Positions 8,565-38,439 of a stretch of 64,000 nucleotides of DNA are shown here, piece after piece. Under the pieces are notes generated by a model. It was not told the DNA's origin and made no database searches. It saw nothing but the letters and a program-made list of their open reading frames with translations. Each line of letters begins with the position of its first letter. Position 1 is the stretch's first letter. This DNA is from Peptococcaceae bacterium (lineage in GTDB: Bacteria; Bacillota; Dehalobacteriia; UBA4068; UBA4997), in the NCBI GenBank assembly GCA_022797295.1, contig JAAWKH010000001.1, positions 186,060 through 250,059 of the forward strand, written 5' to 3'. The translations under genes and the position numbers were made by a program.

Positions 8565-8598
8565 GCCCCTAAAGGCAAAAATTCTCAGAAAAAAACAC

Positions 8599-8648
8599 TT
8601 GCAAAAAAAACGTATGTTCGTTATAATATTAAAAGAACGATTGTTTGT
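8599..8648 (+). promoter_or_regulatory. sigma-A promoter (TTGCAA-17-TATAAT) with two LexA/Cheo-box-like sites
   Basis: -35 at 8599-8604 and -10 at 8622-8627. AAACGTATGTTCG (8608-8620) sits in the spacer and GAACGATTGTTTG (8635-8647) near +1. Both are 1-2 mismatches from GAAC-N4-GTTC. Confidence 0.6.
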
Positions 8649-8678
8649 GATTTGTTAGGTGCTGGAGAGTGTTGCTTT

Positions 8679-9953
8679 ATGAATATGAAAAATAGAACTT
8701 ATCTTTGCATTGATCTTAAATCATTCTATGCCTCGGTGGAATGTGTGGAACGTGGCTTGGATCCTATGACGGCCCGTTTGGTGGTGGCCGATCCTGAGCG
8801 TGGTCCTAAAACCATTTGTTTAGCTGTTACGCCAGCCTTAAAAGCTTTGGGGATTGGTGGGCGTTGCCGTGTTTTTGAAATTCCGCCAGCTTTGGATTAT
8901 ATTATGGCGCCGCCTAGAATGCAGCTTTATATTGATTATGCAGCTGAGATTTACGGTATTTATCTTCGTTATATTGCTAAGGAAGATATTCATGTTTATT
9001 CAGTGGATGAAGCTTTTTTAGATGTGACTCCTTATCTGCATACCTATGGCTTGACGGCTAAACAGTTAGCCTTAAAGTTGATGGATGAGATTTTGACAGA
9101 AATTGGCGTGCGGGCAACCTGTGGTATTGGCAGTAATTTGTATCTAGCTAAAATCGCTTTGGATATTACAGCCAAGCATTCTGATGATTTTATTGGTGAG
9201 CTGGATGAATATAGCTATCGGGAAAAGCTTTGGCAGCACAGGCCGCTGACAGATTTTTGGCGTGTGGGCCGTGGTACTATGCAGCGTTTAGCTGCTTATG
9301 GTATTTATACTATGCAGCAAGTGGCTCAAGCTGACGAGGCGTTGCTTTATAAGCTTTTTGGTATTGATGCGGAATTGTTGATTGACCACGCCTGGGGACG
9401 CGAGCCAGTGACGATTGCGGATATCAAGGCCTATCAGCCCAAGACTAACTGTTTAAGCAGTGGTCAGGTTTTGATGCGGGATTATTCTTTTGCAGAGGCC
9501 TGTTTAATTGTTAAGGAAATGGTTGATCAACTTTGTCTTGAACTGTTGGATAAACAGTTGGTTACGGCTTCGCTTAGTATTTATGTGGGATATAGCAACA
9601 ACTTGCACGCCGCAGCTTCTAAAGGTTCAGCCTGTTTGGCTTCAGCGGTCAGCTCTGATAAGGTCTTGATTCCGGCGGCAGTTGGTTTGTTTGAACAGAT
9701 TGTAGATAAAGACAAGCCAGTGCGTCGTATTAATATCAGTTTTAGTAATTGCTTGCCGGAGGGTAACCGGCAATTAAGCTTGTTTGATAATTTGGATGTA
9801 GTTTTGCAAAAAAATCAGCAGGTGCAAAGGACAGTTTTGCATTTGAAAAAGAAGTTTGGTAAGAATACTATTCTAAAAGGTATGGATTTGTCGCCGGCAG
9901 CGACTGCCAAAGAGCGTAACTGTCAGATTGGAGGACACAAAAGTGGGAACTAA
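8679..9953 (+). CDS. Y-family (UmuC/DinB-like) translesion DNA polymerase
   Basis: CIDLKSFYASVE, SVDEAFLDVT and GIGSNLYLAKIA motifs of Y-family polymerases. ATG at 8679 with GGAGAG upstream. Confidence 0.8.
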   Translation: MNMKNRTYLCIDLKSFYASVECVERGLDPMTARLVVADPERGPKTICLAVTPALKALGIGGRCRVFEIPPALDYIMAPPRMQLYIDYAAEIYGIYLRYIAKEDIHVYSVDEAFLDVTPYLHTYGLTAKQLALKLMDEILTEIGVRATCGIGSNLYLAKIALDITAKHSDDFIGELDEYSYREKLWQHRPLTDFWRVGRGTMQRLAAYGIYTMQQVAQADEALLYKLFGIDAELLIDHAWGREPVTIADIKAYQPKTNCLSSGQVLMRDYSFAEACLIVKEMVDQLCLELLDKQLVTASLSIYVGYSNNLHAAASKGSACLASAVSSDKVLIPAAVGLFEQIVDKDKPVRRINISFSNCLPEGNRQLSLFDNLDVVLQKNQQVQRTVLHLKKKFGKNTILKGMDLSPAATAKERNCQIGGHKSGN

Positions 9954-10293
9954 ACCGAAAGGTAAAATGCCAGTGATTGAACGAGCTAAGCAGTTTATGC
10001 CATTTGCAGCCGTGCGTGGCTTGCAGTTGGCATTGCGCCGCAAGGAGCAAGAGTTAGTTCAGGTGCCGCCTAAAATTATGGCAGAGGAGGCTGCCGCTGA
10101 GCTGGACGCTAAGCTGCGTCAACTTTATAAAGGCAGGCCAGTGCTTATAACCTACTTCTTTGCTGGTAATTATCAAAAAGTTAGTGGTAAGGTTTTGCGT
10201 TTGGATAACGTACATTGTCAGTTGCTTTTGCAAGGGAAAGATGAACGTTGGCAGATAAACTTTTCTGATATAATAGATTTGGTTTTGGTATAG
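9943..10293 (+). CDS. YolD-like protein (accessory partner of Y-family polymerases)
   Basis: Small protein immediately downstream of and overlapping the polymerase gene, as yolD/yqjX does in Bacillus. GTG at 9943 has GGAGGA 7 nt upstream, but the start could instead be ATG 9964. Confidence 0.55.
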   Translation: MGTKPKGKMPVIERAKQFMPFAAVRGLQLALRRKEQELVQVPPKIMAEEAAAELDAKLRQLYKGRPVLITYFFAGNYQKVSGKVLRLDNVHCQLLLQGKDERWQINFSDIIDLVLV

Positions 10294-16113: not shown

Positions 16114-16187
16114 GCGGGTGTAGTTTAATGGCAGAACAAGAGCTTCCCAAGCTTTTAGCGAGGGTTCGATTCCCTTCACCCGCTCCA
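16114..16187 (+). tRNA. tRNA-Gly (anticodon CCC)
   Basis: Cloverleaf folded by eye. Acceptor stem GCGGGTG/CACCCGC, anticodon loop TTCCCAA, T-loop GGTTCGATTCC, 3' CCA encoded. Confidence 0.85.
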
Positions 16188-35833: not shown

Positions 35834-36415
35834 ATGGCAATCGAAAAATATTTGGAGCATTTGCCCAAAATCAATCCCAAAAGTTATATTGCGGATTCGG
35901 CTGTAATTATGGGTATGGTAGAGCTGGACGAGGGCACTAGCGTGTGGCCAAACGCCACTATGCGTGGTGACGTAAATTATATTAAGATGGGCAAATTCAG
36001 CAATGTGCAGGACAATGCTGTTGTGCACGTGGCAGCGCAACCATGTCCAACTATTATTGGCGATCACGTGACCATTGGCCATGGCGCTATTGTACACGCC
36101 TGTATTATTGAGGATAACTGCCTGATTGGAATGGGGGCTGTTGTGTTGGACGGCGCCATTATTGGGCGCGGTTCCATTGTGGGCGCCGGTGCAGTGGTGG
36201 CGCCTGGAAAAATTATTCCGCCATATTCCAAGGTTATGGGTATCCCTGGCAAAGTTGTGGCAACTATGACTGAGGACGATGAGCAGGAGCGTATTAAGCA
36301 CGCCCGGCGTTACTGGAACCTGGCCGCTCAGTATATTGAGGGCGGCGAGGCTTATATGCTGGATGAGCCGGAAATTCCGATTGAAACCGACGAGCCCTAT
36401 CAAAAGTATCTGTAA
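35834..36415 (+). CDS. gamma-class carbonic anhydrase family protein (hexapeptide repeat)
   Basis: Left-handed beta-helix hexapeptide repeats. TAGGAGG RBS. Confidence 0.75.
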
Positions 36416-36428
36416 GCGGAGGTATGTT

Positions 36429-37478
36429 ATGTCTGATAAATCAACAGCTTTAGAGGCTGCATTGCAGCAAATTGAAAAAAACTTTGGCAAGGGTTCTATT
36501 ATGAAGCTGGGATCTGGCGCTGCTCAGGGTATTGAGGTTATTTCTACTGGTTGTTTGCCGTTGGATATTGCCTTAGGCGTGGGAGGTATTCCACGTGGGC
36601 GTATTATTGAAATTTATGGGCCGGAATCTTCCGGTAAAACCACGGTGGCCTTGCATATTGCGGCTCAAGCGCAGAAGATGGGTGGCGTGGCTGCCTTTAT
36701 TGATGCTGAGCACGCTTTGGATCCGGTTTATGCGCACAATTTGGGTATAAACTTAGATGAGCTTTTGGTTTCTCAACCAGACACAGGCGAGCAGGCTTTG
36801 GAAATTGCCGAGGCATTGGTGCGCAGCGGCGCGGTTGACGTTGTGGTGGTAGACTCCGTGGCTGCATTGGTGCCGCGGGCAGAGTTGGAAGGCGATATGG
36901 GGGATTCTCACGTTGGTTTGCAGGCTCGTTTGATGAGCCAGGCTTTGCGCAAGCTGACGGGAGCTGTTAACAAAAGCCGTACGGCAATCGTTTTCATCAA
37001 TCAACTGCGCGAAAAAATTGGTGTGATGTTTGGCAACCCAGAAACTACTGCTGGTGGACGAGCCTTAAAATATTACGCTACAGTGCGTATTGATATTCGC
37101 CGCTCAGAAACTCTCAAGCAGGGTAGCGATATGGTTGGCAATCGCACAAAGGCGAAGATTGTGAAGAACAAAGTGGCGCCGCCATTTAAAATTGCCGAGT
37201 TTGATATTGTATTTGGCGAGGGTATTTCGCAGGCAGGTTCGTTGGTTGATTTGGGCGTGAATTTAGGCGTTATCAAAAAGAGTGGCTCTTGGTTTTCATA
37301 TAACGAAGAAAAAATTGGCCAAGGTCGTGAGAATGCTAAAAAATACTTAAAGAATAACCCGGAAATTTTTGCAGAAATTGAAACTAAGGTGCGTGAGCTT
37401 TCGGTAACTTCCAACCGTTTGTCATTTGGAACTACTGATGAAGAAAACGCTGAAAATGCGGAATCAGAAGCACAATAA
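36429..37478 (+). CDS. recA: recombinase RecA
   Basis: Unmistakable RecA sequence (GPESSGKTT Walker A, etc.). The ORF track's N-terminal extension is trimmed to ATG 36429, 7 nt after GGAGG. Confidence 0.95.
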
Positions 37479-37496
37479 ATTAATTTACTAAATTTA

Positions 37497-37793
37497 ATTA
37501 TCCACAAAAAACAGTGTGCAATTTTCACACTGTTTTTTGTGTGCTTTTTTATATGTTCGGTTCGTTTTTGTTGACTAACCTGTGGAAAAGCCTATATAGA
37601 GAGGCTTTAAGGGGTCTAAACCTTTGTTCGGTGGATTTTTTGTGAATAGTTGTTAAAGCTGTGGAAAATGTGGAAAATAGACCGATTTGACCTAAAAATT
37701 TTTGCTAAAATCCTTTAAGTGAAAAAAAATTATTATAGTGTTTTTAGATACCAAAGCCGAAATTTATAGTCCTCAAGGTTGTTATAATCCACA
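37497..37793. promoter_or_regulatory. cluster of DnaA-box-like 9-mers upstream of the dcw operon
   Basis: Perfect TTATCCACA at 37497-37505. TGTGGAAAA at 37581-37589, 37660-37668 and 37669-37677 (tandem). TGTGAATAG at 37642-37650 (approximate coordinates). TAATCCACA at 37785-37793. Each is at most 1 mismatch from TTATNCACA or its complement. Confidence 0.5.
37511..37539 (+). terminator. rho-independent terminator of recA
   Basis: ACAGTGTG-CAATTTT-CACACTGT followed by TTTTTT. Confidence 0.8.
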
Positions 37794-37892
37794 AATTATT
37801 TTGGTTGTTGGGTAAAACTCCCTTTTTATAGCGTATAAACAGTCTGTTTTTGTAGTTAAAAAGAGGGCAAAGAGGCTTGCTTTTTGAGCTAA

Positions 37893-37966
37893 AAATGGTT
37901 AAAATTATGTCAAGGGTGTTAAAAAGTGGTTTAAAAGTGTTGATGTGTGTTAAAAAGTGGTAAAAA
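37893..37966 (+). promoter_or_regulatory. mraZ promoter (TTGATG-16-TGgTAAAAA) overlapped by a 10-11-bp phased array of AAAGTG[G/T] repeats (candidate MraZ boxes)
   Basis: AAAGTGG at 37923, AAAGTGT at 37934 and AAAGTGG at 37954. Degenerate copies at 37893, 37913 and 37944. The -10 lies at 37961-37966. Confidence 0.5.
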
Positions 37967-37992
37967 AACTTGGTCACGGGAGGTGAGAGCTA

Positions 37993-38439
37993 ATGTCATT
38001 CATGGGAACGTACCAAAATAATGTTGACCCTAAAGGTAGAGTGAGCATTCCCGTGAAATACAGAGAGGCTCTCGGTGAACGTTTTTTTGTGACCAAAGGT
38101 TTTGACAGCTGCATCGATATTTACACCGTGGAGGAGTGGGAAAAGTTTGCTGAAAAGCTGCATAAGCTCTCTGTCACCAAGCGTGATATGCGTGATTTTG
38201 TGCGTTTTATCTTTGGCAACGCCACTGAGGTGGAGCTTGACAAGCAGGGACGTATTCTGCTGCCGGCAATGCTGCGTGAAACGGTTGGTATCGAAAAAGA
38301 AGTGATAGTGATGGGCGTGGGGAACAAGGTGGAGATTTGGGACAAGGTCGCCTGGGATGAACGCCAGCAGGCAATCTCGCAGCATATTTCAGAGATTTCA
38401 GAAAATCTGGGCGCCTTTGATGTGGATTTTGATTTTTAA
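37993..38439 (+). CDS. mraZ: division/cell wall cluster transcriptional regulator MraZ
   Basis: MFMGxY-type N-terminus (MSFMGTYQNNVDPKGRVSIP) and duplicated SpoVT/AbrB-like halves. GGAGGTG RBS. Confidence 0.9.
   Translation: MSFMGTYQNNVDPKGRVSIPVKYREALGERFFVTKGFDSCIDIYTVEEWEKFAEKLHKLSVTKRDMRDFVRFIFGNATEVELDKQGRILLPAMLRETVGIEKEVIVMGVGNKVEIWDKVAWDERQQAISQHISEISENLGAFDVDFDF

Follow-up and report, generated by a model that had tools for sequence, protein, structure and literature searches.

A partly conserved cluster of putative DnaA boxes upstream of the mraZ division operon in an uncultured gut Firmicute

The window analyzed here, a 64-kb stretch of DNA from an uncultured gut Firmicute, contains a 514-bp spacer (32% G+C) between recA and mraZ. 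This spacer carries six DnaA-box-like 9-mers within 296 bp (37498-37793): one TTATCCACA, three TTTTCCACA, one TAATCCACA, and one weak CTATTCACA. We regard it as an evenly balanced proposition that the spacer is a DnaA-responsive regulatory region situated 120-410 bp upstream of the one conserved mraZ promoter, itself under MraZ autoregulation. In this Firmicute, transcription of the division genes may respond to replication status, as reported for Bacillus subtilis. The motifs, their excess, their restriction to the spacer, the conserved footprint at box 4, the promoter, and the MraZ operator can be read directly from the sequence; binding by DnaA and an effect of this binding on transcription are what we infer from them. 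The features of the locus are as follows, with coordinates referring to the window.

36429-37478, + strand: recA coding sequence (Pfam RecA, E = 1e-140)
37498-37506, + strand: putative DnaA box 1, TTATCCACA; perfect consensus, 14.0 bits
37503-37541, + strand: recA intrinsic terminator; 16-pair stem, 7-nt loop, T-run
37581-37589, - strand: putative DnaA box 2, TTTTCCACA (TGTGGAAAA on the + strand); 11.6 bits
37618-37630, + strand: candidate LexA (Cheo)-type box, AAACCTTTGTTCG; CGAAC-N4-GTTCG-type palindrome, not a DnaA box
37641-37649, - strand: putative DnaA box 3, CTATTCACA (TGTGAATAG on the + strand); weak, 10.5 bits
37660-37668, - strand: putative DnaA box 4, TTTTCCACA; conserved core of the cluster
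37669-37677, - strand: putative DnaA box 5, TTTTCCACA; exact tandem copy of box 4
37785-37793, + strand: putative DnaA box 6, TAATCCACA; 10.9 bits, about 120 bp upstream of the predicted mraZ start
37877-37905, + strand: mraZ core promoter; -35 TTGCTT (37877-37882), 17-nt spacer, -10 TAAAAT (37900-37905)
37916-37960, + strand: MraZ operator; five GTG[G/T] repeats at 10-11 bp spacing, directly downstream of the promoter
37993-38439, + strand: mraZ (Pfam MraZ); first gene of the mraZ-rsmH-ftsL-pbp division/cell-wall operon

Box 1 begins 20 nt past the recA stop codon. A preliminary description of this DNA had placed a perfect TTATCCACA at 37497-37505 in the loop of the recA terminator; the box itself holds, but its position is 37498-37506, and only its last four bases enter the terminator, where they form the 5' foot of the stem. 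The same description counted five further sites at one mismatch from the perfect box. This is correct for four of them, whereas box 3, at 37641-37649, has two mismatches relative to TTATCCACA and one relative to TTATNCACA, from which all six sites differ by one mismatch at most. TGTGGAAAA is the reverse complement of TTTTCCACA, and both forms of the word are used below. Four of the six boxes, all inside 180 bp, are matches to the strict Schaper-Messer DnaA-box consensus TTWTNCACA (PMC5835720). The start-to-start gaps are 83, 60, 19, 9, and 116 bp, i.e., a mean spacing of about 57 bp for six boxes, which makes the group a DnaA-box cluster by the definition of Mackiewicz (at least three boxes, mean spacing below 100 bp; quoted in PMC7561715). 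The tandem boxes 4 and 5 are probably the product of one duplication event, so the cluster is better counted as five independent sites than as six.

The operon downstream of the spacer gives Pfam matches to MraZ, MraW methylase, FtsL, and a transpeptidase, and the earlier placement of the cluster upstream of an mraZ division operon is thereby upheld. On the other side of the spacer, the recA ATG is separated from the end of the preceding gene by 13 nt. The promoter at 37877-37905 is the sole sigma-70-like promoter predicted in all close relatives and is kept across all aligned lineages. The MraZ operator repeats are likewise kept in all relatives, and their layout at 37916-37960 fits the GTGG repeats described at mraZ for Firmicutes (bioRxiv 10.1101/2022.02.09.479790); with the B. 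subtilis DnaA matrix introduced below, two 9-bit TTTTTAACA matches also fall within this operator. Because the promoter and the operator are placed at 37877-37960, about 120-410 bp separate the DnaA-like boxes from the predicted mraZ transcription start downstream of them.

Other possible contents of the spacer were considered and rejected. Two further promoter-like sequences, TTGACT-16-TATATA at 37571-37598, which contains box 2 in its spacer, and TTTAGA-16-TATAGT at 37743-37770, are not conserved among close relatives. Searches against Rfam, at the gathering threshold for the window and at E values up to 10 for 37400-38050, returned only sub-threshold noise in the spacer, and the fold of 37600-37912 is not stable (z = +0.31). 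Spacer ORFs of at least 20 aa are short, and relatives show indels that are not multiples of three; an 11-bp deletion in relative L016 falls inside a 77-aa minus-strand spacer ORF. The spacer shows no significant similarity to other parts of the window, as a repeat or mobile element would.

The window as a whole is rich in DnaA-like words: 42 sites lie within one mismatch of TTATCCACA, against 15.4 ± 4 in dinucleotide shuffles. This 2.7-fold surplus points to a general excess, biased to the TGTGG orientation on a strongly G-skewed leading strand. Such a background is what would be expected if the cluster were a chance product of an AT-rich, G-skewed spacer and one 9-bp tandem duplication, its conservation deriving from the LexA-type box, promoter-upstream elements, and common ancestry. 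The 4-5 other copies of TGTGGAAAA in the window, all in coding sequence (1-1.7 expected window-wide), and the single duplication behind boxes 4 and 5 are in line with this explanation, as are the lineages without boxes and the inflation of conservation counts by the shared ancestry of close relatives, both described below.

The density in the spacer, however, exceeds this background. Five sites within one mismatch of TTATCCACA inside 300 bp were obtained in 1 of 300 shuffles. Of the 16 strict TTWTNCACA matches in the window, four are found within 180 bp of the spacer, where 0.21 would be expected, and none of 1000 shuffles of the spacer's own sequence, which control for its AT-richness, reached four. 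The window was also scored with an IDAP-seq-derived matrix that summarizes 150 DnaA boxes with experimental evidence of binding in B. subtilis (Smith and Grossman 2015, S3 Table). Under this matrix, which represents B. subtilis DnaA rather than this clade's own protein, the spacer is the best-scoring 300-bp stretch of the 64 kb, with a summed 2^score of 29,456, threefold that of the runner-up (9,383) and far above the median of 372. The shuffles and the matrix ranking thus agree with the original statement that the cluster is much denser than chance would produce.

MraZ homologues form a graded series from 99% to 60% identity, drawn from uncultured gut MAGs (Peptococcaceae, Bacillota, Candidatus Avidehalobacter). 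The gene order hexapeptide-repeat gene, recA, mraZ, rsmH, ftsL, pbp is retained in most of these relatives; the exceptions are the L012, L024, and L100 lineage, in which a flavodoxin gene is inserted, and L008 (the 60% lineage), which has a peptidase gene upstream instead of recA. Among relatives with at least 90% MraZ identity, box 4 is 0.96 identical to the window, the same value as for the -35 and -10 elements, compared with 0.69 for the unannotated rest of the spacer. The corresponding values in close relatives are 0.87 for box 6, 0.78 for box 5, 0.64 for box 1, and 0.42 for box 3. Boxes 2 and 3 are lineage-specific, box 2 being shared only with L017. In every relative with at least 90% MraZ identity, TGTGGAAAA occurs at the position of box 4 or of the neighboring box 5. 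The tandem arrangement is also present in L016 and L102, while its second copy is degenerate in L014, L018, and L019. At the aligned position of box 1, L014, L018, and L019 carry TTTTCCACA, which differs from TTATCCACA at the degenerate W (position 3) of the DnaA consensus, and L016 and L017 have no box. The box 6 position reads AAATCCACA in L014 and L019, and its core is broken in L016 and L018.

Beyond these close relatives, the word recurs at other places in the spacer. TTTTCCACA is found at different positions in all ten species-level relatives with at least 83% MraZ identity. The group at about 84% MraZ identity has the same 9-mer in the opposite orientation at about -275; L023 retains it there despite diverged flanks, and in L020 it is absent from about -275 and present at -314. 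In L008, where recA does not precede mraZ, an inverted pair at -376 combines a perfect TTATCCACA with TTATCCACC. No strict box was found in five lineages (L012/L024/L100, L096, and L098), which are more distant or rearranged. Over 17 clade representatives, 24 strict boxes were counted against 2.84 expected, a pooled figure that overstates the evidence because the related loci share ancestry and are not phylogenetically independent; the boxes correspond to about five independent origins, with differing positions and orientations in at least four lineages. The bases flanking the 9-mer are unconserved; the motif thus spans exactly 9 bp, as a DnaA box does.

The word is also confined to this place. 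In the 17 related loci (106 kb in total), TGTGGAAAA/TTTTCCACA has 15 copies, and 15 of 15 lie within 520 bp upstream of mraZ, with 0 copies in the 97.7 kb of flanks; the concern that a generally over-represented word had been picked up is thereby ruled out. At 70 outgroup Firmicute mraZ loci, from Planococcaceae, Sporosarcina, Desulfosporosinus, and B. subtilis, no box enrichment was found, and the matrix score upstream of mraZ is 2.2 times the locus median, compared with 21 times in the clade. The arrangement is therefore clade-specific and independently evolved. The four boxes where shuffles give 0.21, the elevated identity of box 4 over the spacer background, the 15 copies in relatives' spacers and none in their flanks, the independent gains of the word in at least four lineages, and the outgroup spacers, which are of similar composition, all argue against a chance origin, which we consider unlikely.

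TGTGGAAAA could also be the site of another DNA-binding protein of the clade, e.g., a division or stress regulator, and its resemblance to a DnaA box a coincidence. Relatives with at least 83% MraZ identity always retain the exact word TTTTCCACA, in no case TTATCCACA with its higher affinity; where strict boxes are missing, the box 4/5 position is occupied by GTGGGGAAAA-like sequences, which make poor DnaA boxes; and the inverted repeat of L008, TTATCCAC-N6-GTGGATAA, is typical of dimeric regulators. In addition, GTGG, the core of MraZ repeats (bioRxiv 10.1101/2022.02.09.479790), is present in all DnaA boxes. MraZ itself was rejected as the binder: the true repeats, at 37916-37960, follow the promoter and have the form AGTGK, spaced 10-11 bp apart, while the cluster consists of TGTGGAWWA at irregular gaps and does not represent extra MraZ repeats. 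To our knowledge, no other motif fits the 9-mer better than the DnaA box. The Spo0A box, which we take to be TGTCGAA, differs from it at the key C, and of the Rex- or CRP-type palindromes presumably only half-sites match. A conserved unit of exactly 9 bp that is used in both orientations is as expected for the asymmetric DnaA box, the window also holds a perfect TTATCCACA and a TAATCCACA, and box 1 toggles between A and T at precisely the degenerate position 3. Recognition by another protein is, on balance, rather improbable.

The region is not an origin of replication. The GC skew is about +0.2 across the whole window without a switch, the neighboring genes are recA and mraZ with dnaA/dnaN not adjacent, and no DnaA-trio (TAR/YTA) arrays were found at the locus. 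The presence of a DnaA-box cluster within an AT-rich spacer recalls oriC, but there are far fewer boxes here and the accompanying genes, skew switch, and trio array are missing. Both oriC and an ectopic origin were rejected on these grounds, in agreement with the initial view that this is not oriC.

DnaA might bind these boxes in a role other than transcription, as a titrating or chromosome-organizing site in a long spacer. The datA locus of Escherichia coli is an example of such a site. Several DnaA-box clusters away from the origin have been described in B. subtilis (sda, ywlC, yydA, ywcI-vpr, gcp-ydiF, and trmE; PMC2533591), and, like the present one, they comprise several intergenic boxes away from the DnaA-trio/DUE machinery. 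Some are regulatory: the sda cluster lies upstream of its promoter, and sda is under positive control by DnaA, while ywlC and yydA are regulated negatively (PMC2533591). Others are stable DnaA sites without an obvious promoter role, e.g., gcp-ydiF between convergent genes, for which control of the initiator level has been suggested (PMC2533591). A role of this kind would suit the distance of the boxes from the mraZ promoter and the location of the perfect box 1, which sits at the recA 3' end beside the terminator and not at a promoter.

The density of the boxes, however, is low for a titrating site. Ishikawa et al. (2007) use a density/affinity index A, calculated over four successive boxes; each of the eight sites to which DnaA binds stably in living B. 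subtilis has a value above 0.3 (PMC2533591). In the present cluster the index reaches a maximum of 0.19, at 37581-37677, which is the highest value in the window and below the 0.3 that marks stable or titrating clusters; spacing is wider than in the B. subtilis clusters, and TTTTCCACA is the prevailing type of box. Moreover, candidate DnaA-binding sequences specific to individual Bacillus species generally lie near oriC (Ishikawa et al., PMC2533591), whereas there is no origin within the 64 kb. The relatives have few and variable boxes (1-4, and none in some lineages), and in L008 the boxes remain with the mraZ upstream region although the upstream gene has changed. A purely titrating or organizing function consequently appears improbable to us.

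Inside the cluster, the palindrome at 37618-37630 is of a kind common to promoters of SOS genes in the same organism, which would make it a LexA (Cheo) box. Its pattern, RAACNNNTGTTCG, has two copies in the window, where 0.14 would be expected. The one outside the spacer is situated in the promoter of a Y-family polymerase/YolD operon, between -35 and -10, beside a second box, GAACGATTGTTT; this operon is a classic SOS unit. All matches to the pattern in relatives lie either upstream of recA or in the recA-mraZ spacer. It marks the recA promoter in more distant relatives, e.g., CGAACAAATGTTCGA as a box pair, while all relatives with at least 90% identity have no spacer upstream of recA and carry the LexA-type box downstream of recA, in the mraZ spacer. 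Boxes of this type are also present upstream of mraZ in L024 (-231) and L096 (-291). In close relatives, the box is 0.94 identical to the window, compared with 0.69 for the rest of the spacer. The position of this box in the cluster suggests a joint input of replication and DNA damage.

It could further be supposed that the region is mainly an SOS (LexA) operator, controlling transcription of the division operon or of an unannotated spacer product, and that the DnaA-like boxes are secondary. The box is conserved like the promoter, outside the mraZ upstream region its pattern is seen only at the Y-family polymerase promoter of the window and at recA promoters of relatives, and three lineages (relatives with at least 90% MraZ identity, L024, and L096) have the box upstream of mraZ. 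Yet the 9-mer repeats, a separate motif with its own footprint, would be left unexplained, no conserved promoter overlaps the LexA-type box, and no conserved ORF or structured RNA was found downstream of it. A predominantly LexA-directed function is thus quite improbable in our judgment, and the box is in any case compatible with a DnaA-responsive region.

The nearest precedent for such a region is the yllB (mraZ)/ftsL locus of B. subtilis. According to papers that cite Goranov 2005 (PMC2533591, PMC8203912, and bioRxiv 10.1101/2022.02.09.479790), ChIP places DnaA at the yllB/ftsL promoter region, on which it acts negatively; PMC2533591 and PMC8203912, as citing papers, bear out the precedent invoked in the preliminary description. 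The two loci share the target operon, mraZ-rsmH-ftsL-pbpB, a core layout with MraZ GTGG repeats downstream of a TAAAAT -10 element, seen likewise in the B. subtilis locus (L103), and the proposed logic, in which the replication initiator acts as a transcription factor linking replication to division. They differ in the upstream gene, which is bshC in B. subtilis and recA here, and in the spacer, which is about 125 bp long and without boxes in B. subtilis, compared with 514 bp and six boxes, one of them perfect, in the present locus. In L103, no DnaA box of at least 8 bits was found between -798 and the mraZ ATG. A gene-name search of the supplementary files on the 269 in-vitro DnaA-bound B. 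subtilis regions gave no mention of yllB, mraZ, ftsL, bshC, or rsmH. The proposal that the cluster is the equivalent of the B. subtilis operator therefore fails in the sequence sense: the B. subtilis mraZ promoter lacks comparable boxes within about 800 bp, and the cluster described here is an analogue rather than a homologue. Judged at the sequence level, it is much stronger than its supposed B. subtilis equivalent.

A further parallel is ftsZ of Caulobacter crescentus, for which DnaA-dependent transcription, reported as activation, is known from Hottes et al. (2005) as cited in PMC8203912. By that account, DnaA at the promoter region of a division gene couples its expression to the replication cycle, as is proposed here. 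Caulobacter belongs to another phylum, the target there is ftsZ and not the mraZ promoter, and its DnaA-box consensus may differ from the one used in this clade.

In the reading we favor, DnaA, most likely in its ATP form, would bind cooperatively to box 1, which is perfect, and to the TTTTCCACA boxes of medium affinity, and thus occupy the region 120-410 bp upstream of the mraZ promoter. This binding would alter the amount of transcription entering mraZ-rsmH-ftsL-pbp, and the expression of FtsL, an unstable division protein, would thereby follow the replication-initiation status. The promoter itself would be autoregulated by MraZ through the five GTGK repeats, at about +4 to +48, and the LexA-type box inside the cluster probably adds a DNA-damage input. 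By analogy, repression would match the report on yllB/ftsL, while the upstream position resembles that of sda, where DnaA acts positively; for simple repression, a distance of at least 120 bp upstream of the sole conserved promoter is an awkward position. Several observations weigh against this reading. In B. subtilis, DnaA is readily detected in vivo at no more than the eight strongest of its 269 in-vitro sites (PMC4447404), the density/affinity index of the cluster stays below the value of stably bound sites, box 4 alone is strongly conserved, and five related lineages have no strict box.

More tentatively, the region may be a three-input operator of the division operon, with the DnaA boxes reporting initiation status, the LexA box reporting damage, and the MraZ repeats providing autoregulation. 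In this same doubtful but possible reading, the mraZ upstream region would have acquired its DnaA and LexA sites independently of B. subtilis and kept them through site turnover. Were this the case, the locus would provide the clearest example at the sequence level of a dcw promoter to which both replication and DNA damage are directly coupled in transcription.

DnaA is well known as a transcription factor, and clusters of its boxes outside the origin are also well known, so that the element is of an expected kind. The coupling of replication and division in bacteria is only partly understood. As relayed by the citing papers, the link between DnaA and ftsL in B. subtilis rests on ChIP at a promoter without clear boxes. 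A clade with a clear, partly conserved cluster of DnaA-like boxes beside a LexA-type box would offer a cleaner system in which to ask whether division genes are tuned directly by the replication initiator.

The GC skew of the window is very strong (approximately +0.2) and uniform over positions 1–64000, except for 16–24 kb, a stretch with genes on the minus strand. DnaA-like words occur at 2.7 times the shuffle frequency and, on the plus strand, show a strong bias to the TGTGG orientation. RNAs in the window include:

16114–16187: tRNA-Gly, CCC anticodon
62626–62807: 6S RNA (Rfam RF00013, 87 bits)

The recA–mraZ spacer of the window contains invariant blocks, and an MraZ operator lies directly 3′ of the conserved promoter:

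37731–37745: block TTATAGTGTTTTT, invariant among close relatives
37842–37864: block CAGTCTGTTTTTGTAGTTAAAAA, invariant among close relatives
37916–37960: MraZ operator, five GTG[G/T] repeats with a spacing of 10–11 bp

Neither block matches a DnaA, LexA, or MraZ motif, and neither is part of a conserved promoter. Two MraZ repeat units of the window also score as DnaA boxes, at approximately 9 bits (TTTTTAACA). Among the mraZ loci of related genomes (L-numbers, each with its own coordinates), L012, L006, and L008 have three operator repeats each, and L016 carries an 11-bp deletion within the operator. In Bacillus subtilis (L103, 2940–3000), the MraZ repeats are GTGGAG, GTGGTG, and GTGGTG; among them is GGTGGATAG, a DnaA-box-like word with two mismatches and the sole DnaA-like sequence near the B. 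subtilis mraZ promoter.

The region ahead of mraZ is rearranged in some relatives. A peptidase gene, not recA, precedes mraZ in a lineage with 60% MraZ identity (L008 and L009), and in other lineages recA and mraZ are separated by an inserted flavodoxin-like (FMN reductase) gene that runs on the opposite strand:

L008 2178–2199 and L009 506–527: TTATCCACAATTTGGTGGATAA, two head-to-head DnaA boxes separated by 4 bp, in the spacer upstream of mraZ
L012 2908–3579, L100 915–1586, and L101 1888–2559: flavodoxin-like gene

In the latter three loci, strict DnaA boxes are absent 5′ of mraZ.

LexA-type boxes occur elsewhere in the window, where 8590–10293 looks like an SOS-controlled operon with a TTGCAA...TATAAT promoter ahead of its polymerase gene:

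8608: LexA-type box AAACGTATGTTCG, in the promoter
8635: LexA-type box GAACGATTGTTT, in the promoter
8652–9953: Y-family DNA polymerase, IMS domains
9928–10293: YolD-like protein

Ahead of recA, no LexA box is found in the window or its closest relatives, in which recA starts 13–14 nt past a hexapeptide-repeat gene (36415–36429 in the window). More distant relatives have a 130–200 bp spacer 5′ of recA that holds one or two canonical LexA boxes (L004 2482; L006 2425/2446; L012 1726/1747; L101 720/741). The lineage of the window may have lost or rewired the SOS control of recA.

A further LexA-type site lies within the DnaA-box cluster upstream of mraZ:

37618–37630: LexA (Cheo)-type box AAACCTTTGTTCG

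This box shows no variation in any relative with at least 90% MraZ identity, and a LexA-type box 5′ of mraZ recurs in L024 (−231) and L096 (−291). This conservation and recurrence suggest an SOS input to the upstream region of the division operon.
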